Part shown: piece after piece, positions 1,329-58,851 of the stretch
Layout of the letters: each line of letters opens with the position of its first letter
Position numbering within the stretch: the first letter of the stretch is position 1
NCBI GenBank assembly: GCA_963845185.1
Contig: CAWJRG010000010.1
Span: 544,001-608,000 of the forward strand
DNA: 64,000 bases
Direction: 5' to 3'
Source: an uncultured bacterium
Lineage (GTDB): Bacteria > Oederibacteriota > PGYV01 > CAWJRG01
Made by a program: the position numbers and the translations under genes
The notes under the pieces: model-generated
Told to the model about the DNA's origin: nothing
Seen by the model: only the letters and a program-made list of their open reading frames with translations
Databases searched by the model: none

Positions 1329-2981
1329 TCAGTCTTCCATTTTTTCCAGCCGCCTTATGCCCATTTCAAGCGTAGCGGCTATAATTATAATCGAAACAAA
1401 AATAATAAGCAAAAAATTCATTTTATAATTTCCAACAAAAAACTTTTGACCTTTCATGAAACTGTATAAGTAAAAATCCCTGACAGGCCCTGCTTCGAGC
1501 CACAAAACTCCGCCTATAAATATCGACGTCACGAACATGTAAATCAGCCCCGGCGCTCCGGTGATAAATTCCTCGGCGTTTTTTATGTTAAATTTTGCAA
1601 AGTATGCGCCGAAGCCAACGCCGGCGCCCGCTACTACAACTGTAATAAAAAATGCAGAAAATACCGTCATATTCCTTATAAATACGTCTGTTTTTAAAAT
1701 TTTGACCGATATAAAAGCCACTGCCTGTCCTATTATTACAAGCGGCAGCGAGTATAACAGGAATTTATAAAATATATATTTTCTGATTGAAAAAGGTGCT
1801 GCCTTTAATATCCAGAAAGCCTGCCCCTCTATGCTGATGACAGGCAAAACAAGCCTTGAACCTATTGCTGAAAGCACAAATCCCACAAATCCGATATTTA
1901 AAAAATAAATCAGGTTTTTCAGGCTGAATAGGTCACCAGGAAGCTTCAGCATATTGAAAAGGTAAATGCTCACAAGTCCCACTAAAAAGATTATCTGTAT
2001 CCATTGTGATGTGTCCCTTATGAAATATTTCAGGTCCTTTACTATCTGGGCGTAAAAAATGCTTTCCTTTTTATAGTTGTAAGCTGTCATTGGTTTTTCC
2101 TGAGTATATATGTCTTTCTTGCCGTAACCTTCAAAATATAAGAATCTTCCCATTGTTACCACAATGAAAAAAACTATTACGGCCGCCGCGGAAAAACCAG
2201 CGAAAAAAACCAGGGAATTGATGACGCCATAAGATGTGATATTTTGTATTATTTTTATAAGCCAAGTGTGCGGTAAAAAAATGCTGTCGCTCGTTCTTAG
2301 GTTTCTCACAAAATCCATTATTGCAGTATCCGAAAGGTTTGAGCCGGTTATCTTTTCGGGCTGCAATGCCCTGAAATATATTATTATAAATACCATGAAG
2401 AGTCCGCTTAAGACCACGGCAATGTTGCGCACATTTTCAGCCGGGAAAAATTTTACCAGTAGCATGGTGATTATTATACCTGCCGAGGACAGTAATATAA
2501 AAAATGGTATATGGCTCAATAAAATCATGGCAAATTTTGCTGTGCTTACATGGAGCACTTTTCCATAAGCCCCGAAAATAGGTATGCTCATTATAAATAT
2601 CATCCAGCAGGCGTTAAAAATAATTTTTAAATATTGCATTGTAAAAATATCCTCTATTTTCATCGGCATACTGAAAAGGAAATCCATATCCCTGCTTAAA
2701 TAAAGTATGGATATTGATGCCACTATGGAAGACAAAACCGTCATTATTGAAAAGGCCATGAATATGGAAGACAGTATCTTGTTTACCAGGAAACCCCCGA
2801 TTATGGGAGCCGAATAGAAATTTTTAATGATAAAATAAAACAGCTGGTATATGAGCCAGAAAAAAGCCGAGGCAAATATCAAAACCATTACAATGCGGAT
2901 TATATCGCGTGGTGTAGGGCTCTTAAACGTATTTTTAACCTGGGTGAAATAAAACTTCAAAAGCCAGCTCAAACCCTTCAT
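1329..2981 (-). CDS. Putative ABC exporter permease (multi-TM)
   Basis: 550 aa with many hydrophobic segments in two halves; start overlaps the stop of the ABC ATPase. Confidence 0.8.
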   Translation of the reverse strand: MKGLSWLLKFYFTQVKNTFKSPTPRDIIRIVMVLIFASAFFWLIYQLFYFIIKNFYSAPIIGGFLVNKILSSIFMAFSIMTVLSSIVASISILYLSRDMDFLFSMPMKIEDIFTMQYLKIIFNACWMIFIMSIPIFGAYGKVLHVSTAKFAMILLSHIPFFILLSSAGIIITMLLVKFFPAENVRNIAVVLSGLFMVFIIIYFRALQPEKITGSNLSDTAIMDFVRNLRTSDSIFLPHTWLIKIIQNITSYGVINSLVFFAGFSAAAVIVFFIVVTMGRFLYFEGYGKKDIYTQEKPMTAYNYKKESIFYAQIVKDLKYFIRDTSQWIQIIFLVGLVSIYLFNMLKLPGDLFSLKNLIYFLNIGFVGFVLSAIGSRLVLPVISIEGQAFWILKAAPFSIRKYIFYKFLLYSLPLVIIGQAVAFISVKILKTDVFIRNMTVFSAFFITVVVAGAGVGFGAYFAKFNIKNAEEFITGAPGLIYMFVTSIFIGGVLWLEAGPVRDFYLYSFMKGQKFFVGNYKMNFLLIIFVSIIIIAATLEMGIRRLEKMED

Positions 2982-47636: not shown

Positions 47637-48065
47637 TTAAATATTGCTAGCATGTAACTGTGACTTCCCATCTATGTACGACGCCAATTTTAAATCGTTC
47701 ATTCTTATATGGCGTATAAACCAGTCCCCAATATTTTCCTTGAATTCAACAGCGCATTCAGTCCCGGCCTCCCCTTTTAAAACTTTATTTGCAAGGGTCT
47801 GGAATTCCTTCATAAAGCTCTCATGAAGCCTTTTATGGCCGTCAGTGTCAGGGTAGTCGGAATTGTCCATATATTTTTCCTCGGTTGAAAAATGACGGAT
47901 GGCTTCGTTTTTAAACCTTTTCAGCAGGTCAATTGTGTAATCTTTTTTTTCATTTAAACCCATTGATTCGATAATATCCGAAACACGCGTTATGAGCTCT
48001 TTATGCTGTTCGTCAAGAATCTTTATCCCGAGTTTCAGGTCTTTTGTCCATATTATTTTCTCCAT
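47637..48065 (-). CDS. Bacteriohemerythrin
   Basis: DEQH, HFSTEE, HKRLH, WFIRHIRMND ligand set intact. Confidence 0.9.
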   Translation of the reverse strand: MEKIIWTKDLKLGIKILDEQHKELITRVSDIIESMGLNEKKDYTIDLLKRFKNEAIRHFSTEEKYMDNSDYPDTDGHKRLHESFMKEFQTLANKVLKGEAGTECAVEFKENIGDWFIRHIRMNDLKLASYIDGKSQLHASNI

Positions 48066-48200: not shown

Positions 48201-49232
48201 TTAAAGGCAGTCCGTTATTATATTTTTATATTCTTCATTCCCCATTATTTCATTGCATAATTCGCATATAAATGAATATTTCTTGTAAGGATCCAAAATA
48301 ATTCTTTTTTTATTTAAATTTTCGCGCAAGCCTCTGGGCCCGGAATTCGCCAGTATGGTAAAAAGCTTGTTTTTCTTTGCCCTGTCTACAACATCACTGA
48401 CGCTTTCCCTGCTTAAATCCCCTATTATGTAATCATTCAGGAACCCGTTTCCGTTTCCGCAGCAAACCCTCACTTTAAAATCCGGTTCAACCCACAGATA
48501 GCCAACGCCTTTTGGCCCGAGGCATGCTTTATCCGGCACGTCCTGCATGAGAACCTCATAATCGTACAGTTCTTCCCGCGCCGGCCTTGTCGGGTGCCAT
48601 GTGCCGAATTTTATCTTATGCCCATCTATGTAAATTTTTTTATTTTTGGCATCAAGCCACGCATCTTTAATGCCGTAATTTTTTAATTTCTCAAAATAAT
48701 TGTCATATAATTCAAATATCTTCTTTAAATCATAAAAACTCGAACCTATTGTGAGGGTTTCCAAAGGGAAATATTTTGAATAAATAGCCGTAAAAACAGC
48801 AGGCCATTCTATTGGTATATTGCCGTTATGGTACGGGTCAATGCTTATCCTGAACCCTGCTGTATAATTTATTTTCTTAAGCTCGCTGAAAAGCCATTCT
48901 GTTTTTCTATCATCTTTTCCTATATAGGCGTTTGTGGGCGGTTTATTTACCCTGATGGCTAGCTTTTGCGCGTGTGGTATTATGGTTAGCATAAACTCAG
49001 GGTACATTGTGGGTTCCCCGCCTGTTATTTGCATGGAATGCATTCCCATTTTTTTTGCTTCACGCAGGATTTCTATTGCGCGGCTTATATCCATGTTTTT
49101 CCCCATGTCATGGATTGTAAAATCTATATTGCAGTGCCTGCACATGCCCGTGCAGTTGTAGGTAGGTATGAATACAATGCCTTTGGGGGTGTAGGTATTG
49201 TTGGTTTTGGCTGGATTTTTCTGCGGGTTCAT
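48201..49232 (-). CDS. Radical SAM protein with a C-terminal Cys-containing extension
   Basis: CTGMCRHC, ITGGEP, C-terminal C..CC..CELC. Confidence 0.88.
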   Translation of the reverse strand: MNPQKNPAKTNNTYTPKGIVFIPTYNCTGMCRHCNIDFTIHDMGKNMDISRAIEILREAKKMGMHSMQITGGEPTMYPEFMLTIIPHAQKLAIRVNKPPTNAYIGKDDRKTEWLFSELKKINYTAGFRISIDPYHNGNIPIEWPAVFTAIYSKYFPLETLTIGSSFYDLKKIFELYDNYFEKLKNYGIKDAWLDAKNKKIYIDGHKIKFGTWHPTRPAREELYDYEVLMQDVPDKACLGPKGVGYLWVEPDFKVRVCCGNGNGFLNDYIIGDLSRESVSDVVDRAKKNKLFTILANSGPRGLRENLNKKRIILDPYKKYSFICELCNEIMGNEEYKNIITDCL

Positions 49233-49275: not shown

Positions 49276-50484
49276 TTATACTTTCTCATAAGGGTCAAAA
49301 AGCCTTTTATATTCCTCAAGTATTGCCCTGTCAGTCATGCCGGCTATGTAGTCGCATATTACCCTTTTTAGGGAATCCTTTTCCAGGCGTTTCCTGATAT
49401 TTTCAGGCAATATTGACGAAGATGCGCCGTGTTTGTCTTTTATTATTGCCCTGCTTTCATATATTTTAAACAGTTCTTTTATTACCCTGTATGCCTTATC
49501 CTCCATCCTGATGACTTTATAATGCTTGTAAAGGTTTTTATAAAGAAAATCCTTGATGTCTTTGTGCATTTCTTCGGTTTTTTTGTCAAAAACAGCAAGG
49601 TTTTTTTTGTGCTTTCTCACTTTTTCCACAGAATCTATTTTATGCTGCTCGATATTTTTAAATGTATTGTTTGTCAGGTTTGTAACCTGTATGTTAATAA
49701 GTGCCCTTGTAATATTATATTTTTTCATATCAAGCGACAGTGTCACAAATTTTTTCATATCGATTGTTTTTTCAATTTCTCCCCATATCAGTGTCTTTTT
49801 CAGGTCCTCAACTTCCAAAATACCGGATGTTATGCCGTCATCCACGTCGTGTGAATTATAGGCGATTTCATCGGCGATGTTTACGACTTGGCCCTCGAGC
49901 GTAGCCTTCAACTCAAGCTCATACTCCTTATAATCTTTATAAACCGGCGAGTCGTAGGATGTCTTATGCTTTACCATTCCCTCCCGCAGCTCCCATGAAA
50001 GGTTTAATCCCGGGAAATCCGGATATTTTTCCTCCAGTTCCTCAAGCACGCGTAAACCCTGTATGTTATGCTCAAACCCGCCCTCGTCTTTTGTAAGCTC
50101 ATTCAAAGTTGCTTCGCCGGAATGCCCGAAAGGCGTGTGGCCTATATCGTGAGCCAGGGCTATTGACTCTGTAAGTTCTTCGTTCAGACGTAGTGTTTTT
50201 GCTATGCTTCGCGCTATCTGCGCAACTTCGTTGGTATGTGTAAGCCTTGTCCTGTAATAATCACCTTCATGGTTAACGAATACCTGGGTTTTGTATTCCA
50301 GTTTCCTGAAAGCGGTCGAATGTATTATCCTGTCCCTGTCGCGGCCGTAAACCGAGCGGAAAGGATGCTCCTTTTCCGGGTATTTCCGGCCTTTTGTGTA
50401 TTTGCTCTTCATGGCATAAGGCGCAAGCATTTTTTCCTCAAATTCCTCAAGCTTTTGCCTTGTCAATAAAAATACGTTCTCCAT
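49276..50484 (-). CDS. dgt: dGTP/dNTP triphosphohydrolase
   Basis: RDRDRIIHS, KTQVF, RTRLTH, LAHDIGHTPFGHSGE, ADEIAYNSHD, DYIAGMTD. Confidence 0.95.
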   Translation of the reverse strand: MENVFLLTRQKLEEFEEKMLAPYAMKSKYTKGRKYPEKEHPFRSVYGRDRDRIIHSTAFRKLEYKTQVFVNHEGDYYRTRLTHTNEVAQIARSIAKTLRLNEELTESIALAHDIGHTPFGHSGEATLNELTKDEGGFEHNIQGLRVLEELEEKYPDFPGLNLSWELREGMVKHKTSYDSPVYKDYKEYELELKATLEGQVVNIADEIAYNSHDVDDGITSGILEVEDLKKTLIWGEIEKTIDMKKFVTLSLDMKKYNITRALINIQVTNLTNNTFKNIEQHKIDSVEKVRKHKKNLAVFDKKTEEMHKDIKDFLYKNLYKHYKVIRMEDKAYRVIKELFKIYESRAIIKDKHGASSSILPENIRKRLEKDSLKRVICDYIAGMTDRAILEEYKRLFDPYEKV

Positions 50485-51810
50485 TTAATCCCCTGATTTT
50501 AACGTGGTATTCGGTATAATGTATTCCATAAATAAATCCTTAAGGCGTTTTGAATAATCGCCTTTTGCCGCAAGTTTTTCAATTCTTTTCAGCAAATCGG
50601 AAAATACCGCGTCTTTTATTTCCATGTTTGTGGCGACTTCCACCGCCACCAGCCTCTCTTCGAAAATTTCCCTTAGTGCCTTGAAGAATCTTTTTGCCTT
50701 GTCGCCCTCGGCGCCGGTCATGGCATTGAAGTTGGATATTACCCTGGGTATTTCAAACATCGCGTCCTGACGCGTATTGCCGTCCTTATCCTGAAAAGCC
50801 TTCTTCAGAACATCCTTGTTTTTTGTTGCAGCAGCATCAGCGGCTTTTAAAAAAAGTGCCTCTGCTTTCTTCCTGTCCGTCCTGGCGGCAAAAAGTTCAA
50901 AAAAAACTTTCTGGGTTTCCTCAAAAAGACCTATCAGGCTGGTTTTCTCTTCGTTGGCTAATTTAAGTTCCGTAAGCTCACTTTGCAGTATTTCGCTTTC
51001 CTTTTTAACCTCATCTAGTTTGCTTAATATAGCCTGCCTTTTGCGTTTTCTTTCCTCTTCGATTTCCGTCAGGAGCTGTTCCTTCATTTTTTCTCTTAAC
51101 TCGGATTCCTGTTGCGTCCTTTTTTCGTCCTCGGCCTTTTTAAGTTCAAAGAGCTGTTTGAGTATCGCTTCTTTTTTTTGCTTTTCCTGCTCTTCCATTT
51201 CTTTTTTTAGCTCATCTTTTATAATATCTTTAAGCTCGCTTTCTTCCTTTGCCCTTTTATCATCTTCCAATTGTTTTAAGACCTGCAGTTGTTTAAGTAT
51301 TCCTTCTTTTTTCCGTTTTTCTTCTTCCTCAAGCTCTTTTCTTATTTTTAACTCGATTTCTTTACGGCTTTCCTCGGCCTTTTTCCTTGCTTCTGCCTCT
51401 ATCTTTTCCTTCATTTCCTTTTCCAGTTTAGCCCTGATTTCAGCTTCTATCCTTGCTCTCATTTCCTCCTCGGTTGTTGTTTCTACTGTATCTCTTTTTT
51501 GCATGGCGTTTTCTTTTTCTATCATTTCATCGGTCTTCTCCTGTATTTCGATATTAATAAGCTTTTCTTTTTCTTCCTGCGTTTCTATTTCCATTGCTTT
51601 TTCCAGTTCTTTCATTACTTCTTTTTCCATGCCGCCCTGCATTTCTTTCTCCATTACTTCCTTAATTTCTTCAGCAAGCTGCTGCTCAACTTCTTCTTTA
51701 ACTTCTTTTTCCATGGCCTTATTAAGTCTTTGGCGTTCTTCCTCAAACTCTCGCAGGAGCTGTTCTTCTTCTTCTGTCAATTTTCCTGTTTGTCCAAATT
51801 CATTGGCCAT
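50485..51810 (-). CDS. Hypothetical E/K/R-rich helical rod protein, paralogue 3
   Basis: 441 aa; shares N motif and C-terminal domain with its two neighbours; GAGG RBS. Confidence 0.8.
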   Translation of the reverse strand: MANEFGQTGKLTEEEEQLLREFEEERQRLNKAMEKEVKEEVEQQLAEEIKEVMEKEMQGGMEKEVMKELEKAMEIETQEEKEKLINIEIQEKTDEMIEKENAMQKRDTVETTTEEEMRARIEAEIRAKLEKEMKEKIEAEARKKAEESRKEIELKIRKELEEEEKRKKEGILKQLQVLKQLEDDKRAKEESELKDIIKDELKKEMEEQEKQKKEAILKQLFELKKAEDEKRTQQESELREKMKEQLLTEIEEERKRKRQAILSKLDEVKKESEILQSELTELKLANEEKTSLIGLFEETQKVFFELFAARTDRKKAEALFLKAADAAATKNKDVLKKAFQDKDGNTRQDAMFEIPRVISNFNAMTGAEGDKAKRFFKALREIFEERLVAVEVATNMEIKDAVFSDLLKRIEKLAAKGDYSKRLKDLFMEYIIPNTTLKSGD

Positions 51811-51829
51811 ATTTATCCCTCAATTTTGT

Positions 51830-53671
51830 TCATATTTTCGGTGCTATATTCTGCATGAATAAATCTTTGAATTTTTTATCATAATTTGCTTTTGTCAAAA
51901 GCCTGTCTATCTGTGTAAGTACGGAGGCTATGATTTCGTTTTTTGCTTCTTTGCCAAGTGTTTTCTCGGTTTCCCTTAATCTTTCTTCAAAAATTTCGCG
52001 TAACGTTTCAAAAAAGCTTTTTGACGCTTCTTCTTCCGGCATCTTTAACGCGCCTACATTTGACGCCACCTGTGCAACATCCAAGGAACCGTCAGATTTT
52101 AATTTTCCTTCTTTGTTATATCTTGCCTTTTGCAATACATCATAGTGCTTGCTAGTTGCGTTTGTTGCAACTTTAAAAAACATATTTTCTGCGTCATTAC
52201 GGTTTATCCTCTTGCCGTATATATCAAGGAAGATTTTCTGCGATATCTCAAAAATCTGCATTAGGGCTATCCTTCCGTCCTTGCTAACAGCAACATTCTC
52301 CATTGCCTTTTTTAGTGCCAGTTCTTTCTTTTTTTCCTCTTTTTCTTTTTTCGCAGCTTCAAGCTTGGCAATTATTTCTTTTTTCTTACTTTCCTTTTCT
52401 TCTTCTATTTCTTTTCGGAGCTCTATTTTCATCTTTTCCCTTAGCTCCGGCTCCACTTTTGCCTTTATGCGTGCTTCATCTTCTTTATTAGCTTCCTCTG
52501 ATTTTTTCATTTCCTGGGCTTTTCTTAACTGCTGTTCTTTCTTTATTCTTTCCTGCTCTGCCTGTATTTTCTTAAACTCTTCCGAGTCTCTTATATCCTG
52601 CAGTTGCTTGCGCAAATCTTCCATTTTCCTTTTTTCGCGTTCCTCAAACTCTTTCTGCAGTTCCTGTTTCATTTTTTCCTTTAATTCTCGTTCTAATTTC
52701 TCTTTTTCCCGTTCTTCCTCCATCTTGCTTATTTCAACTGATTTCTTTAATTCCAGCATTTGTTTGCTTAATTCTTTTTCTCTTCGCTTATCGTGCTCTT
52801 CAAATTCCCTTAGAAGCTCTTTCCTCATTCTCTCTTTCAAATCCTGTTCAATAATTGCTTTCCTGTTCTCTTCTTCTGCTTTTGTAATTTCATTGCCTTT
52901 TTTAAGTTCGTTAAGCTCTTTTTGTATTTCTTCACTCCTTATCTTTTCCCTTTCGTCAAATTCACGCTTTAATTCCTCGCGTACTTTATCTTTTAATTCA
53001 TCCTCGTATTTTTCCTTTTTTAAATCGTCCATTCTCCTGATTTCTTGTATCTGTTTTAATAATTCTTCTCTTTTTTTCTGTTCCTCTTGTGCAAACTGGC
53101 GTAAAAGCTCATCCTTTAACTTATCTGCCAGTTCCAGCTCATGCTGTTTCCGTCTTTCCTCCTCCATTTGCTTGAAAAGATCAAGCCTTTGCTGTAATTC
53201 TTCCCTTCGGATTTTCTCCTTTTCAATTACTTCCTCCCTTATTCTCTCCTCAAGCTCGTTTCTTGTCGCCTCTATCCTGTCCCTTGCTTCTGCTTCAATT
53301 TCTCCTTTTAGTTCATTTTCTATTTTAACCCTTAGTTCTTCTTCAAGGTGCCTTTTAAGTTCCTCCACATCAATGGCGGGCTCGACAACGGCCGCAGCTT
53401 TTTTTTCGGCTTCTTTAATGGCCTCACGCTCAATTTCACGCTCAACTTCTTCGCGTACCTCACGTTCAATCTCCACGTCAAGTTCTTTTTTCACTTCGAG
53501 CTCAATTTCATCAAGCGTTCCCTGTTTCATAGCCTGTTTGATTTCTTCTTCTATTTCATGCTCGATATCATCTTCAAGCTCGTGTTCCATTTGCCTTTTT
53601 AAACTTTCGCGCTCGGCTTCAAATTCGCGTAAAAGCGCCTCTTCCTCTTCTGATAATCTTCTTTTTGCCAT
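51830..53671 (-). CDS. Hypothetical E/K/R-rich helical rod protein, paralogue 2
   Basis: 613 aa; 45/52-aa internal repeats; shared head and tail. Confidence 0.8.
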   Translation of the reverse strand: MAKRRLSEEEEALLREFEAERESLKRQMEHELEDDIEHEIEEEIKQAMKQGTLDEIELEVKKELDVEIEREVREEVEREIEREAIKEAEKKAAAVVEPAIDVEELKRHLEEELRVKIENELKGEIEAEARDRIEATRNELEERIREEVIEKEKIRREELQQRLDLFKQMEEERRKQHELELADKLKDELLRQFAQEEQKKREELLKQIQEIRRMDDLKKEKYEDELKDKVREELKREFDEREKIRSEEIQKELNELKKGNEITKAEEENRKAIIEQDLKERMRKELLREFEEHDKRREKELSKQMLELKKSVEISKMEEEREKEKLERELKEKMKQELQKEFEEREKRKMEDLRKQLQDIRDSEEFKKIQAEQERIKKEQQLRKAQEMKKSEEANKEDEARIKAKVEPELREKMKIELRKEIEEEKESKKKEIIAKLEAAKKEKEEKKKELALKKAMENVAVSKDGRIALMQIFEISQKIFLDIYGKRINRNDAENMFFKVATNATSKHYDVLQKARYNKEGKLKSDGSLDVAQVASNVGALKMPEEEASKSFFETLREIFEERLRETEKTLGKEAKNEIIASVLTQIDRLLTKANYDKKFKDLFMQNIAPKI

Positions 53672-53792
53672 TTTATTTCCTTTTTCTTATAAGTAATATT
53701 TACTGGCTTAACATACAAAACATACGATTTTGAAATAACTTCAATAAATTAATAATTTTAATTTAATGATTACTCACTACCTGCCCTTAACA

Positions 53793-54674
53793 TCATTCCC
53801 CTGGTTTTATAGCGGTACTTGGAACTACAAAATCCATAAATATACTCTTGACTTTTTGTGTAAACAAAACATTCTCAGTTATTTTTCCAAACTGCCGGAA
53901 CAGCTTTGACATAATTTCATTTTTAACCTGGCTCCCAAGCGCAATTTCAATTGCTATGAGCCTTTCTTCAAATATATCTTCAAGCGCTTCAATAACTTTT
54001 TTAGTTTTAATATCCTCTCCGCCCTGAAGTGCGTTAATATTGGCTATTAGCCTGCCTGCTTCTATTATACCGTCATTCTTTAATTTTCCGTTTTGATTAT
54101 AATCAACCTTCTTTAAAACTTCATTATGTTTTTCAATTGCTTGTTCAAGGGTTTTTAAAAACATTGTATTGACCGGTTTCTTCTTTATAAGTTTGCCGAG
54201 CAATTCGGCCAAAATCTTTTGTGCACGGTCAAAAAGCTGTATCAGGGCAATCCTTTCGCCATATGTCATTGTAAAATTTATACTATCCTGCATATTTTGA
54301 ACTTCACGTTTATCTGGGTTCTGCTGGTCTGTTTTTTGTTCAACCACGGAATTTTCTTTTTTTGACCCGGATAAAGCTTCTGCCAGTTTCTCCCTGTCGA
54401 TTACGAGATAACCTGCAAACCCGCCCTTTGTTTCTTCCTCTTTTTTTATTAATTCTCTTTCCACTTCAAATTGTTTTAACAATTCTTCTTCATCGACAGA
54501 TAGCTCTTTTTTAGCTGTATCATCAGTGTGCTTATGTATGGATTCTTTTTCTTCACCGTTTAATATCTTTTTTGCCTTGTCGGCATCTACTTTTTCAATT
54601 TGTTCACCGAACAAAATAGAAACAATGTCGGTAAAATCTATTTTGTAATCGTCGTTTTCCGGCATAAAATTCAT
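53793..54674 (-). CDS. Hypothetical protein, paralogue 1 (head and tail, no rod)
   Basis: 293 aa; LSVDEEELLKQFEVERE and ALEDIFEERL motifs shared with neighbours. Confidence 0.8.
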   Translation of the reverse strand: MNFMPENDDYKIDFTDIVSILFGEQIEKVDADKAKKILNGEEKESIHKHTDDTAKKELSVDEEELLKQFEVERELIKKEEETKGGFAGYLVIDREKLAEALSGSKKENSVVEQKTDQQNPDKREVQNMQDSINFTMTYGERIALIQLFDRAQKILAELLGKLIKKKPVNTMFLKTLEQAIEKHNEVLKKVDYNQNGKLKNDGIIEAGRLIANINALQGGEDIKTKKVIEALEDIFEERLIAIEIALGSQVKNEIMSKLFRQFGKITENVLFTQKVKSIFMDFVVPSTAIKPGE

Positions 54675-54708
54675 CCCTTTTTGCGTTAAAATTCAAGCAT
54701 TTGAAGTT

Positions 54709-54737
54709 AATTTATCATAATAACTGTACCATGTCAA
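54709..54737 (-). promoter_or_regulatory. Sigma70-type promoter for the paralogue cluster
   Basis: TTGACA-17 nt-TAAATT. Confidence 0.55.
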
Positions 54738-54803: not shown

Positions 54804-57014
54804 TTAATTGTCTGTTTTTTCAAGACCGCCATATTTTGCCGATATCAATTTTTTGCCGTATTTATTAAAATTTATGGTAAGTTTTAGGTCGTCACCGTAT
54901 GACTCGACTTTCATGATTGTACCCGTACCCATTTTCTTATGCTTAACTGTTTCCCCTGGTTTATAAGGTATATCTATATCCGACGGCATATCAAGGTATT
55001 CTGTATCAATATCCCGGATTGTATCAATTATATCGCCGTTTTCAAGATATTTTTCCTTTACCGCATTAATCGGCATCCTGCCCTTATAGTCAATCAACTC
55101 GGCTGGTATTTCATTCAAAAATCTTGAAACTGTGCCCATTTTTTTTGTACCAAACTGTCTTCTTGCCACTGCACTTAATAAATATAATTTTTTCTTTGCC
55201 CTTGTTATACCCACATAACACAGCCGTCTTTCCTCTTCAATACCACCCGGCTCTTCCATACAATTCCTGTGAGGGAAAAGATTTTCATCCATGCCTGTCA
55301 TAAAGACAACGCTGAATTCAAGTCCCTTTGCGCTGTGCAGAGTCATCAGTGTCACTGCGTTAGCATCTTTATCCCATTTATCAAAATCAGTCATTAAGGC
55401 TACCTGCCCGAGAAAATCCTGAAGATTCGTTTCTTCGCCTCTTTCCTCGTATTCCGCAAGCGCGGATACAAGCTCTTTTATATTTTCAACTCTGTCTTTG
55501 GCCTTTATTGACGTATCGTTTTGCCAGTAGTCAAGATAACCCGTTGAAACCAGTATGGCGTTGAGTATTTCGGTTGGTTTCATTTTATCTTTTCGCGCGT
55601 TAAGTTCTTTTATTAAGGCATGTAATTGTTTTATTGCTGTTTTTGCTGAATCCTTAACGTCGATAATTTCATCCACAACGTTTAAGCCTTCAAACAGCGA
55701 CATATTGTTTTTAAAGATATGCTCCTCAATTTTTGATACAGTAGTATCCCCTATGCCTCTAGGCGGTACGTTTATTATCCTTTTAAAACTGATAACATCA
55801 AAAGGGTTTGCAATTATCCTTAGATATGCCACCAGATCCTTTATTTCCATTCTTGCGTAAAATTGAGTGCCCCCAATCAGCTTGTACGGAACTCCTGCAC
55901 GCCTGAATTTATCTTCAAATATCCTTGACTGCGCGTTTGTCCTGTAAAAAATAGCCATATCTTTAAGCTCTACATCAGAGTGCGAGAGCAAACTTGCTAC
56001 TTCATTTATAATAAAATCGGCTTCGTCGCCTTCGTCATCTGCGTAATAAAAAACAATTTTATCGCCATCTTCGTTCTTGCTCCACAATTCTTTGTCTTTT
56101 CTTTCCTTATTATTTGTTATCACTGCATGTGCAGCTTTCAAAATGTTTTTTGTCGATCTGTAATTCTGTTCAAGCCTGATAACTTTTGTTTCCTTGTAAT
56201 CTTCCTCAAATTCAAGTATGTTTGTAATATCTGCACCACGGAACCTGTATATGCTCTGATCGTCGTCGCCAACCACACAGATATTCTTATATTTTTCAGC
56301 AAGAAGCGAAATCAAGACATATTGGGAATTATTTATATCCTGATATTCATCAATAAGTATATACCTAAACCTTTCCCTGTAAAGTTGCAGTGTGTCCGGA
56401 TCATTTTTAAAAAGTTTTATAGGCTTGATTATGAGATCGTCAAAGTCAAAGGCATTATTGCGTTTAAGCTTATCTTCGTAAATTGAATATATTTTAGAAA
56501 CTGCGTCTCCTTCTATTGTATTTGAATATTCTTTTTCGTATTCATCCGGAGTCACAAGTTGGTTTTTTATATCCTGTATCAGCTTTATAACTTTGTATGG
56601 TTTTATCTCCTTTTCGGAAATTCTCGCCTCGTGCATGCATTCTTTTACAAGTCTTTCCCTATCATCCTCGTCAAAAACAGAAAAGCTGTTTGTAAAACCA
56701 AGTTTGCCTGCTTGCTTCCTCAATATCCTGCTTCCAAAAGAATGAAATGTACTCATCCAGATTTTACCAGCAGGTTGTCCCACGACGTTTTGTATTCTTT
56801 GTTTCATTTCATCAGCAGCCTTGTTCGTGAATGTAACAGCCAGAATATTATCGGGGCTTATTTTATATTCAGATATAAGATAAGCTATTCTGTATGTTAT
56901 TACCCTTGTTTTTCCACTGCCGGCTCCGGCTAAAATCAAAAGCGGGCCGTCCTTATGCTTTACTGCTTCAAGCTGTTGTTCATTAAGCAAAGTTTCTAAT
57001 TTCAAATTTTTCAC
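54804..57014 (-). CDS. pcrA: UvrD/PcrA ATP-dependent DNA helicase
   Basis: AGAGSGKT, TFTNKAA, DEYQD, GDDDQSIY, QNYRS, HSAKGLEF, EERRLCYVGITRA. Confidence 0.97.
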   Translation of the reverse strand: MKNLKLETLLNEQQLEAVKHKDGPLLILAGAGSGKTRVITYRIAYLISEYKISPDNILAVTFTNKAADEMKQRIQNVVGQPAGKIWMSTFHSFGSRILRKQAGKLGFTNSFSVFDEDDRERLVKECMHEARISEKEIKPYKVIKLIQDIKNQLVTPDEYEKEYSNTIEGDAVSKIYSIYEDKLKRNNAFDFDDLIIKPIKLFKNDPDTLQLYRERFRYILIDEYQDINNSQYVLISLLAEKYKNICVVGDDDQSIYRFRGADITNILEFEEDYKETKVIRLEQNYRSTKNILKAAHAVITNNKERKDKELWSKNEDGDKIVFYYADDEGDEADFIINEVASLLSHSDVELKDMAIFYRTNAQSRIFEDKFRRAGVPYKLIGGTQFYARMEIKDLVAYLRIIANPFDVISFKRIINVPPRGIGDTTVSKIEEHIFKNNMSLFEGLNVVDEIIDVKDSAKTAIKQLHALIKELNARKDKMKPTEILNAILVSTGYLDYWQNDTSIKAKDRVENIKELVSALAEYEERGEETNLQDFLGQVALMTDFDKWDKDANAVTLMTLHSAKGLEFSVVFMTGMDENLFPHRNCMEEPGGIEEERRLCYVGITRAKKKLYLLSAVARRQFGTKKMGTVSRFLNEIPAELIDYKGRMPINAVKEKYLENGDIIDTIRDIDTEYLDMPSDIDIPYKPGETVKHKKMGTGTIMKVESYGDDLKLTINFNKYGKKLISAKYGGLEKTDN

Positions 57015-57211: not shown

Positions 57212-58438
57212 TCAATTCATTTCTTCCTTATATTTTTCCTTTATAGCCCTGATTATGTCGTATACTGAAAAGAAAATATCCACAATTTCAGGATCAAAAT
57301 GTTTGCCTTTATTTTCTTTTATATAATCAAGAACCCTTCCTTCCTCCCAGGCATCCTTATACACTCTTTTCGAAATTAAAGCGTCATAAACGTCGGCCAA
57401 GCCGACAATCCTTGCTGTGACTGGTATCTGATTTTCTTTCTTGCCCATTTTTAATGTTATCGGGCCATTGTTAACATTGTCAATCACTCCGGGATATCCT
57501 GTGCCGTCCCACTTTTCATGATGATTAAGCGCGACCTCGGCGGACATAAAATCAAGTTCTGAATCTGACTGTTCAAAAAACCTCGCCCCATAAATTGTAT
57601 GCAGCTTCATTATATTGTACTCTTCCTCATCAAGTTTCCCCGGCTTTTTAAGGATTTTATCCGAAATCGCAATTTTACCTACATCGTGGAGCATCGAAGC
57701 AATCCTAAGCTTATCCTTAAATCTCCTTACAAGTTCCTGGGGAAAATCCCTCTGCTCAGCCCATTTATTGTAAATTTCAATCGTATATGACGACATCCTG
57801 TTCACATGTTCGCCTGTTTCCTTGGGATCCCTGAATTCAACCATTCTAATCATTCGCAAAACCATGGCCCTTGTTAATTTTGCCTTGTCTATAGCTATTG
57901 AGGCACTGTTGGCCAGGTATGTCACGTACATTACGTCTTCGTTGTTAAAGACCCTAGGTTTGCCTTTTTCATCGCGCGCATTTATTACTTGTAGCACGCC
58001 TATTACCCTGTTCATTGAGGTCTTAAGAGGCATTGTTAAAACCGATCTTGTCCTGTAATCGGATGACTCGTCAAATGATTTATCAAAGCCAAAAGATGAT
58101 TTTGCGCCTATCTTATATGCATCGGATATGTTAAGGGATTCCGACTTCAAAGCGACATAACCCGCTATTGAAGTGTTGTTTATTTCAATAAAATGATCTA
58201 AGTATTTATATTTATTTGCCGGACTTTTTTTAAAAAGCTTGTCATTCTGAATATAACTTATTTTTAATTTATTGTCTTCGCATAAAAATATAGTCCCGCC
58301 TTCTGCGTTTGTGACTTTCCTTACTCTGAATAAAACCATATCAAGAAGTTCGTCAATATCTGCGATATTATTTATCTCTTCAGTTACTTTTAAAACATTT
58401 TTCATCATTTCTTCAAAGCGCGTTGTTTTTATGCTCAT
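57212..58438 (-). CDS. GAF plus HD-GYP cyclic-dinucleotide phosphodiesterase
   Basis: GAF (YRTRSVLTMPL..IGVLQVIN), ETGEH, LHDVGK, HHEKWDGTGYP, ADVYDAL; ATGA overlap with the upstream gene. Confidence 0.9.
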   Translation of the reverse strand: MSIKTTRFEEMMKNVLKVTEEINNIADIDELLDMVLFRVRKVTNAEGGTIFLCEDNKLKISYIQNDKLFKKSPANKYKYLDHFIEINNTSIAGYVALKSESLNISDAYKIGAKSSFGFDKSFDESSDYRTRSVLTMPLKTSMNRVIGVLQVINARDEKGKPRVFNNEDVMYVTYLANSASIAIDKAKLTRAMVLRMIRMVEFRDPKETGEHVNRMSSYTIEIYNKWAEQRDFPQELVRRFKDKLRIASMLHDVGKIAISDKILKKPGKLDEEEYNIMKLHTIYGARFFEQSDSELDFMSAEVALNHHEKWDGTGYPGVIDNVNNGPITLKMGKKENQIPVTARIVGLADVYDALISKRVYKDAWEEGRVLDYIKENKGKHFDPEIVDIFFSVYDIIRAIKEKYKEEMN

Positions 58439-58851
58439 GATTGTAATCCTTTTTTGCTTTGGACGTGCTCTTTCATTATGCACTTGTCCATTACAACATC
58501 TATTTCGTTTTTTCTAGCTATATCGGCTGCTTCCTCGTTTATAATGTTTTCCTGCATCCATATAGCCTTTGGCTTAATTTTAATTGCTTCCTCGACAACA
58601 GGCATAACTTCTTCGGAACGTCTGAAAATAACAACCATATCAACATGCTCCTTTATATCCTTAAGATTCCTGTAAACAGGCTCACCCAGTATTATTTCTT
58701 CTCTAGGGTAAACCGGTATTATTTTATAACCCTGTGACTGCATATATTCTGACACTATATTCGAAGCTCGCTCAGGTTTTGGCGACAAACCAACCACTGC
58801 AATTGTTTTTGTGTATTTTAATAATTTATTTATATTAGCATCCATTTTCAA
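58435..58851 (-). CDS. CoA-binding protein (YccU-like)
   Basis: IAVVGLSPKPER, IIPV, WMQ, VVMDKC. Confidence 0.9.
   Translation of the reverse strand: MKMDANINKLLKYTKTIAVVGLSPKPERASNIVSEYMQSQGYKIIPVYPREEIILGEPVYRNLKDIKEHVDMVVIFRRSEEVMPVVEEAIKIKPKAIWMQENIINEEAADIARKNEIDVVMDKCIMKEHVQSKKGLQS

Follow-up and report, generated by a model that had tools for sequence, protein, structure and literature searches.

Three tandem genes in a 64,000-nucleotide (nt) stretch of DNA from an uncultured bacterium (contig CAWJRG010000010.1 of assembly GCA_963845185.1, positions 544,001 to 608,000; hereafter the window, meaning this whole stretch) encode paralogous proteins, P1, P2 and P3, whose family is real, new, and without a curated model. 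The proteins share a C-terminal tail domain and an acidic head motif, differ in the length of a charged rod of 45- or 52-residue units between these ends, and are tentatively interpreted as soluble tethers or adaptors of graded reach, each laid out as peptide, spacer and domain. The family is older than the tandem array: an ancestral member with a disordered linker, overlooked in a preliminary description of the window, has a truncated sigma-70 gene and the genes of a two-component system as its neighbours.

Shared ends of P1, P2 and P3

The preliminary description had recorded three tandem paralogues of 293, 613 and 441 amino acids (aa), and both the open reading frames (ORFs), all on the minus strand, and BLASTP similarity among their products bear this out. 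Using compositional adjustment, the three pairings aligned at 37% identity over 153 aa (E 1e-30), 33% over 172 aa (E 4e-33) and 34% over 302 aa (E 3e-44), so that the similarity withstands correction for composition bias. The common C-terminal domain, first put at roughly 150 aa, was delimited at ~155 aa with 33–37% identity. The acidic head motif attributed to all three proteins was recovered (BLASTP matches at E 2e-4 and 0.023) and is conserved in orthologues, but the head common to P2 and P3 is a larger region of ~100 residues, not a short motif alone, since these two proteins are 39% identical across their first ~270 residues. P1 begins with a further acidic motif (residues 8–45) that is not present in P2 or P3.

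Structures were modelled with AlphaFold2 (AF2), and confidence is given as the predicted local distance difference test (pLDDT). In the P1 model (22-sequence alignment), the tail (residues 131–287, pLDDT ~90) is predicted as a bundle of long helices with a small hairpin, and the remainder of the chain outside the N-terminal helices scores below 50. The P3 model (27-sequence alignment) has helices at residues 13–57 and 60–104, which make up the P2/P3-type head region as two helices of ~45 residues each, a continuous helix at 115–280 (pLDDT 55–88), and a tail with pLDDT >90. Across the whole family, a single Arg of the tail never varies, and two Gly, one Asn, one Met and one Leu hardly vary; no nucleophile or metal-binding residue set was found among the conserved tail positions of the family alignment, and, as no invariant residue looks catalytic, a binding module fits the tail better than an enzyme does. 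Neither Cys nor Trp occurs in P1–P3, whose net charges lie between -9 and -23. Their highest 19-residue Kyte-Doolittle means (0.79–1.0) fall within the tail domain, in keeping with the earlier statement that they lack a signal peptide or transmembrane (TM) segment.

The family had been called unrecognised, and searches of known families and folds agree. For P1–P3, the best Pfam-A match reached 15.7 bits (cut-off 25) and the best NCBIfam match 14 bits (cut-off 80). Among 83 of the 94 relatives described below (two already known members and nine fragments were left out), 82 were without a Pfam match at E up to 1e-3; the exception was a sub-threshold adh_short match in the N-terminal part of one protein, outside the tail. 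PADLOC-DB 2.0 returned no families at E up to 0.01 for P1–P3 and a fourth paralogue of the same genome, and PHROGs matches were no better than E 0.011. Protein Data Bank (PDB) chains gave 0 sequence matches to P1 at E up to 1, and two chance rows (E 1.7 and 7.8) to the family profile. Foldseek gave no clear match to the tail fold in the PDB (best E 0.2) and a best E of 0.16 in BFVD, with none at E up to 0.001 in either; the ESM Atlas, searched by features, gave a best score of 0.87, to unnamed clusters. Thus the tail matched no characterised family, and the similarity among P1–P3 was not lost to compositional bias.

Range and history of the family

Word-indexed searches found 19 and 1 relatives. 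A 22-member profile, searched against 1,835,955,588 representatives, matched 94 proteins at E up to 1e-3 (1e-10 or better for 83 of them, 1e-30 or better for 23). Almost all align on tail positions; four are short fragments matching N-terminal positions alone. The survey of range and synteny by hidden Markov model (HMM) that the preliminary description had proposed thus yielded a confined family: source names are Candidatus Goldiibacteriota, Goldbacteria and candidate division FCPU426, with a few metagenome-assembled genomes (MAGs) labelled Spirochaetia or Methylomirabilis, others unnamed, and a distant branch named just "bacterium". The FCPU426 16S cluster is assigned to Goldbacteria in the cited account (PMC7031533).

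In a survey of the phylum, 52 of 99 genomes had a match. Within the order of the window's genome, that genome excluded, matches were found in 18/23 genomes (1–4 each); in families f18, f19, f20 and f22, 33/40 genomes had one or two (a single one in every matching f22 genome); and nine other families of the phylum had none (0/35 genomes).

A maximum-likelihood tree was computed from the last 168 residues of 39 members and rooted on the distant f22 branch. It separates an "ancestral" clade within the order (support 94/86), which includes the fourth paralogue of the window's genome, from a "rod" clade (100/99) to which P1 and P3 belong together with the long forms and the f18 members. Inside the rod clade, the P1-type proteins form a clade (97/94), as do the "long" proteins of 565–633 aa from four other genomes (100/100). 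P2 falls outside both, its best match among all proteins gathered is P3 (34%), and no close orthologue of P2 was found among them; P2 is therefore regarded as an extra lineage-specific paralogue set between a conserved P1–P3 pair.

Tail and N-terminal motifs can be aligned across all subfamilies. The N-terminal acidic motif occurs in ancestral and distant members and in P1; P2, P3 and the long forms begin with the head motif. The linkers of ancestral and distant members are Pro/Ala-rich or mixed and contain no units, and those of the rod clade are Glu/Lys-rich and helical; the charged rod is thus a later addition between two older ends.

Repeats and helix character of the rods

The rod had been described as absent, long or medium, with periods of 45 and 52 aa, and this was reproduced. 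Autocorrelation against 300 shuffles gave z 8.6 at lag 52 and z 4.0 at lag 45 for P2, and z 7.7 at lag 45 for P3, and an HMM of the unit counted 0 units in P1, 6 in P2 (5 strong) and 3 in P3. The units have a common core of ~38 residues, to which the P2 unit adds 7 spacer residues; "45 plus one heptad", as the longer period had been put, is right as arithmetic, but the rods have no heptad periodicity. Unit number ranges from 0 to 6 among paralogues and orthologues, with protein lengths from 367 to 633 aa.

The rods are 56–60% charged, 24% hydrophobic and 1% Gly+Pro, with net charges of -15 to -25 per rod, and the 428-residue charged region of P2 holds 114 opposite-charge pairs from i to i+4 (60 acid-to-base and 54 base-to-acid). 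Hydrophobic power at a period of 3.5 is at shuffle level (z -0.4 for P2, 0.1 for P3), no hendecad or heptad signal (3.67 or 3.5) was found in the window's proteins, and the 3.5 signal is also missing in the long forms of relatives. Mean best heptad a/d occupancy was 0.43 (P2) and 0.41 (P3), against shuffle means of 0.46 and 0.48, and no 28-residue window of the rods reached 0.75. Hydrophobic periodicity is strong at 3.75 and 4.0 (z 6–10), in part because these periods are harmonics of the sequence repeats (45/12, 52/13). Residues 28–100 of P2 and 28–104 of P3 (window positions ~53372–53590 and 51499–51729, minus strand) follow a strict period of four, with one aliphatic among acidic residues (z 5–6 by autocorrelation, ~9–10 by periodicity analysis), broken by Gly-Gly in P3 and its orthologues, and by Gln-Gly in P2.

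These sequence features argue against a canonical left-handed coiled coil, leaving a single alpha-helix (SAH) or a non-canonical bundle. The comparison of coiled coil with SAH that had been suggested was decided in one part: the heptad signal is missing, but the single-helix features are mixed, given the charged and hydrophobic fractions above. At 0.15 nm per residue, the modelled P3 helix would span ~25 nm, and the P2 rod ~50 nm.

The preliminary description favoured a cytoplasmic scaffold, filament or molecular ruler. The cytoplasmic setting and the modular spacer hold up, and a ruler or spacer is still compatible with the data; the filament is weakened by the lack of 3.5 periodicity. A cytoskeletal or scaffolding role, in which tails, heads or rods would join the paralogues into filaments or a lattice, as in bacterial intermediate filament (IF)-like or coiled-coil-rich proteins, is considered unlikely. 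The head-rod-tail layout would suit it, as would the 24% hydrophobic content with its significant 3.75–4.0 periodicity, the presence in one operon of paralogues with the same ends, and the lineage-specific, variable sequences described for IF-like proteins (PMC3296230); 45 residues could moreover be read as three 15-residue turns-of-four, so that a right-handed bundle would be possible in principle. A classical coiled-coil filament, however, is made improbable by rods that lack heptads, have a/d occupancy below that of shuffles, are more than half charged, and are modelled as a continuous helix; their net charge also counts against assembly. The linkers of ancestral members are disordered and non-helical, which makes the rod a late addition and places the core function of the family in the ends.

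Ancestral and distant members

The fourth paralogue of the window's genome lies on another contig (28% identity, E 1e-9). It is split over two frames (L004:2090-2347 and 1489-2211, minus strand, G000 contig C5), an 85-aa ORF carrying the N-terminal motif and a 240-aa ORF the remainder. The frame changes within an A-rich tract around L004 2100-2125, for which an assembly error, a pseudogene or a slippery site could account. Split or truncated ancestral copies were also seen in two relatives (L058, L059).

In the ancestral clade, uvrC is followed by genes for a histidine kinase and a sigma-54-dependent response regulator, then by those for a secreted coiled-coil protein, a sigma-70 region 2 protein and the family member. 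The sigma fragment (120–142 aa) consists of region 2 alone, without region 3 or 4; it covers positions 1–69 of the 71 of Pfam Sigma70_r2 (E 1e-9) and matches NCBIfam models only on region 1.2–2 of RpoD and RpoH, and none of the curated models scanned matched it at full length. It directly precedes the ancestral member in 13/13 genomes examined, with stop and start codons mostly abutting or overlapping, and it lies upstream of large DUF11/FlgD_ig surface proteins. A complex prediction for the sigma fragment and the neighbouring member returned a score of 0.00, which is no answer and is evidence neither way. In the distant f22 loci, uvrC, the kinase and the regulator are followed by genes for two proteins that look secreted or outer-membrane-like, then by the member, and after it by RNase PH and the Ham1/RdgB NTP pyrophosphatase (Pfam-checked in 2 loci, with the same ORF-length pattern in 6/6). 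The secreted coiled-coil proteins of the two ancestral contexts showed no similarity by BLASTP (E 3.4), and orthology is not claimed.

These neighbourhoods bear on a second alternative, that the proteins are transcription-linked regulators whose tail or N-terminal peptide binds the sigma-70 region 2 fold or RNA polymerase, the rod paralogues being derived. The invariant position of the ancestral member directly behind a region 2-only protein speaks for it, as do the genes for uvrC, a histidine kinase and a sigma-54-dependent regulator that lie upstream of both the ancestral and the distant single-copy clades, and the presence of pcrA ahead of the rod array; helicases of the PcrA/UvrD kind associate with RNA polymerase. 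Such a role is nevertheless rated improbable: no sigma-like gene adjoins the rod clade or the distant clades, no fold match to sigma or anti-sigma proteins was found, and gene neighbourhood by itself is weak evidence.

Gene array and neighbourhood of the rod clade

The features of the array and its immediate neighbours are collected in the table, together with the sigma fragment.

Features of the P1–P3 array in the window, and the sigma fragment outside it (minus strand throughout; residues numbered within each protein)
Feature	Position	Strand	Description
P1 (paralogue 1, P1 type)	53793..54674	-	ORF 293 aa; P1-clade support 97/94; 0 rod units in this genome
P2 (paralogue 2)	51830..53671	-	613 aa: head, ~350-residue rod (5 strong + 1 weak unit, period 52), tail
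P3 (paralogue 3, P3 type)	50485..51810	-	441 aa: head motif, two ~45-residue helices, 166-residue helix (3 units, period 45), tail
Promoter-like site	54709..54737	-	TTGACA, 17 nt, TAAATT, TG before second hexamer; in pcrA–P1 gap
P1 acidic N-terminal motif/domain, residues 8–45	54540..54653	-	Alignments; AF2 helices 14–22 and 31–43, pLDDT 61–84
P1 head motif, residues 57–79	54438..54506	-	BLASTP and alignments
P1 tail domain, residues 131–287	53814..54284	-	Predicted helical bundle with small hairpin; AF2 pLDDT ~90; BLASTP
P2 charged helical region, residues 28–455	52307..53590	-	60% charged, 24% hydrophobic, 1% Gly+Pro
P2 tail domain, residues 459–611	51839..52297	-	BLASTP
P3 single continuous predicted helix, residues 115–280	50971..51468	-	AF2 pLDDT 55–88; ~25 nm if fully helical
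P3 tail domain, residues 286–431	50518..50955	-	AF2 pLDDT >90; BLASTP
dgt, dGTP triphosphohydrolase	49276..50484	-	NCBIfam NF002326, 468 bits (cut-off 390); start abuts P3 stop
pcrA-like helicase gene, upstream of array	54804..57014	-	TIGR01073, 885 bits, slightly below cut-off 911
Free-standing sigma-70 region 2 protein	L036:7615-8004 (G000 contig C5, outside window)	-	Orthologues in L029-L033, L053-L059

Intergenic gaps are 129 nt (pcrA–P1), 121 nt (P1–P2), 19 nt (P2–P3) and none (P3–dgt), and a purine-rich ribosome-binding site precedes each of P1, P2 and P3. The promoter-like site noted upstream was located at 54737–54709 by a consensus scan only, with 10/12 matches plus the TG. A search of sequencing runs gave no RNA data, and one DNA run with a 0.07 share of words. 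Translation of P1 probably starts at the second ATG, at 54665, giving 290 aa instead of the 293 of the ORF, because the GGG of its ribosome-binding site leaves no space before the first ATG, the database form has 290 aa, and the nearest orthologue starts likewise. P2 lacks the conserved terminal peptide, its TGA falling ~7 codons ahead of the end point of P1 and P3, and genome searches flagged "1 TGA inside the match" for it; the in-frame continuation past this TGA (51800–51862, minus strand) was seen to be faintly like that peptide. A mobile or foreign origin of the array was rejected, as its guanine-plus-cytosine content matches the surroundings and synteny is kept across the order.

A P1-type gene is followed by a P3-type gene in all six loci of the order that hold both. 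The gene dgt follows the P3-type gene in 8/8 relatives' loci (67–75% identity, gaps of 0–19 nt or overlap), the order P1–P3–dgt is kept, with stop and start codons abutting or overlapping, and an AMP-binding enzyme and NAD synthase lie past dgt (Pfam check, two loci). Full-length pcrA is upstream in 5/8 relatives' loci, with a partial match in a sixth.

This linkage, which also holds in the window, together with the distant-clade member followed by RNase PH and Ham1/RdgB, would be the ground for regarding the proteins as accessory or regulatory subunits that localise or gate Dgt, or nucleotide-pool enzymes more broadly; we think this very improbable, as the window's Dgt is of the ordinary housekeeping type, above the equivalog cut-off, and such enzymes elsewhere are not known to need partners, the relatives' long paralogues and the ancestral clade do not adjoin dgt, and P1–P3 match no PADLOC model. 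Of the array and its neighbours, only dgt and pcrA match PADLOC-DB 2.0, to generic dGTPase and UvrD-helicase models.

Three further ORFs were observed nearby. Just downstream of dgt (48201–49232, minus strand) lies a 343-aa radical-SAM-like ORF, whose matches are far sub-threshold (best to the peptide-modifying YydG family, E 2.6e-10, 40 bits, cut-off 300), adjoined by a 142-aa ORF at 47637–48065. Upstream of pcrA (57212–58483, minus strand), a 423-aa ORF weakly resembles an HD-GYP-type c-di-GMP phosphodiesterase response regulator (NosR family, 82 bits, cut-off 400).

Interpretation

The three genes are duplicates within a fast-evolving family of acidic, soluble proteins limited to part of one candidate phylum (Goldbacteria/FCPU426 and allies). 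Each protein combines short N-terminal acidic helical motifs with a C-terminal bundle of ~155 residues, separated by a linker of freely varying length, which in this order has become a highly charged, non-heptad alpha-helix of 45- or 52-residue units. Under the tether interpretation, partners would dock at the two ends and the helix would act as a semi-rigid spacer, so that P1, P3 and P2 would present the same ends ~0, 25 and 50 nm apart, and the tethers would be expressed together with the deoxynucleoside triphosphate (dNTP) hydrolase Dgt. A binding module and docking peptides joined by a spacer are suggested because the ends are conserved, the middle is free to vary, and no residues look catalytic; binding of partners by the ends, a monomeric state of the helix and a role for its length are all inferred. 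In the cited accounts (PMC5378345, PMC4183817), SAHs of prokaryotic and eukaryotic proteins are presented as semi-flexible linkers that join functional domains.

Several points weigh against this interpretation. No partner is known. AF2 modelling of a monomer draws a single helix for any helical rod, the hydrophobic content of the rods, 24% with 3.75–4.0 periodicity, could drive self-association, and that content exceeds what is usual in classical ER/K helices. One genus of the same order (G091–G093, three genomes, 97–98% complete) has no member and sister genera in the same family have 3–4 matches; the family appears to have been lost there, and is therefore dispensable. The window's P1 lacks the rod unit that 2/5 scanned P1 orthologues retain, and, having lost it, leaves room for the 0/25/50 nm series to be drift, not design.

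A more elaborate form of the tether interpretation can be given only a slim chance. It supposes a hitherto unseen class of RNA-polymerase- or sigma-associated tethers, in which the ancestral member and the sigma fragment, as a sigma mimic or half of a split sigma, would act under a sigma-54 two-component system, and the Goldbacteria duplicates, through SAH rods of ~25 and 50 nm, would keep the nucleic-acid enzymes of the neighbouring genes, Dgt and PcrA, at a fixed reach from the machinery of transcription or replication. If true, it would describe bacterial molecular rulers of graded length. The simpler tether interpretation, if correct, would supply a bacterial example of one binding module carried on helical spacers of genetically modular length. 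The tail would then also add a new domain family, a confidently modelled helical bundle without a clear match among solved structures, and the conserved free-standing sigma-70 region 2 protein is a by-product of the analysis. Should the tether interpretation be wrong, what would stand is a well-delimited, lineage-specific family of an uncultured phylum, useful for annotation and of limited wider reach.

Comparison with known systems

The architecture of P1–P3 resembles that of known spacer and rod proteins. Like the ER/K SAH linkers of myosin VI/X, INCENP and the CAF-1 KER, the rods are predicted long Glu/Lys/Arg-rich helices without a heptad seam, with many opposite-charge pairs from i to i+4, placed between two modules; such helices are described as semi-flexible spacers in the literature cited (PMC5378345, PMC4183817, PMC10335832). 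The rods differ from them in being just 56–60% charged, in containing 24% hydrophobic residues spaced at 3.75–4.0, and in being built of 45- or 52-residue repeats, and they are net acidic, which makes DNA binding of the CAF-1 kind unlikely.

IF-like and coiled-coil-rich proteins (crescentin, FilP, CcrP, CfpA, RsmP) are likewise described as cytoplasmic, lineage-restricted, head-rod-tail, sequence-variable and often paralogous (PMC3296230). The present family, in contrast, is without heptads, its conserved part is a globular tail of ~155 residues, and it has no sequence or profile similarity to them; P2 and P3 have the tripartite layout, but layout alone does not define an IF-like family.

The Streptomyces Scy/FilP proteins, too, are bacterial helical rods with an unusually long sequence period, their repeat being ~51 residues (a literature search found no text on this); here the period is 45 or 52 residues, and comes from recent duplication of units. 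In proteins of the TolA/TonB type, a conserved C-terminal binding domain is held off by a long charged helical or extended spacer. P1–P3 differ from these in being cytoplasmic, with neither membrane anchor nor signal peptide, and in having no homology to them, but the design principle is the same.

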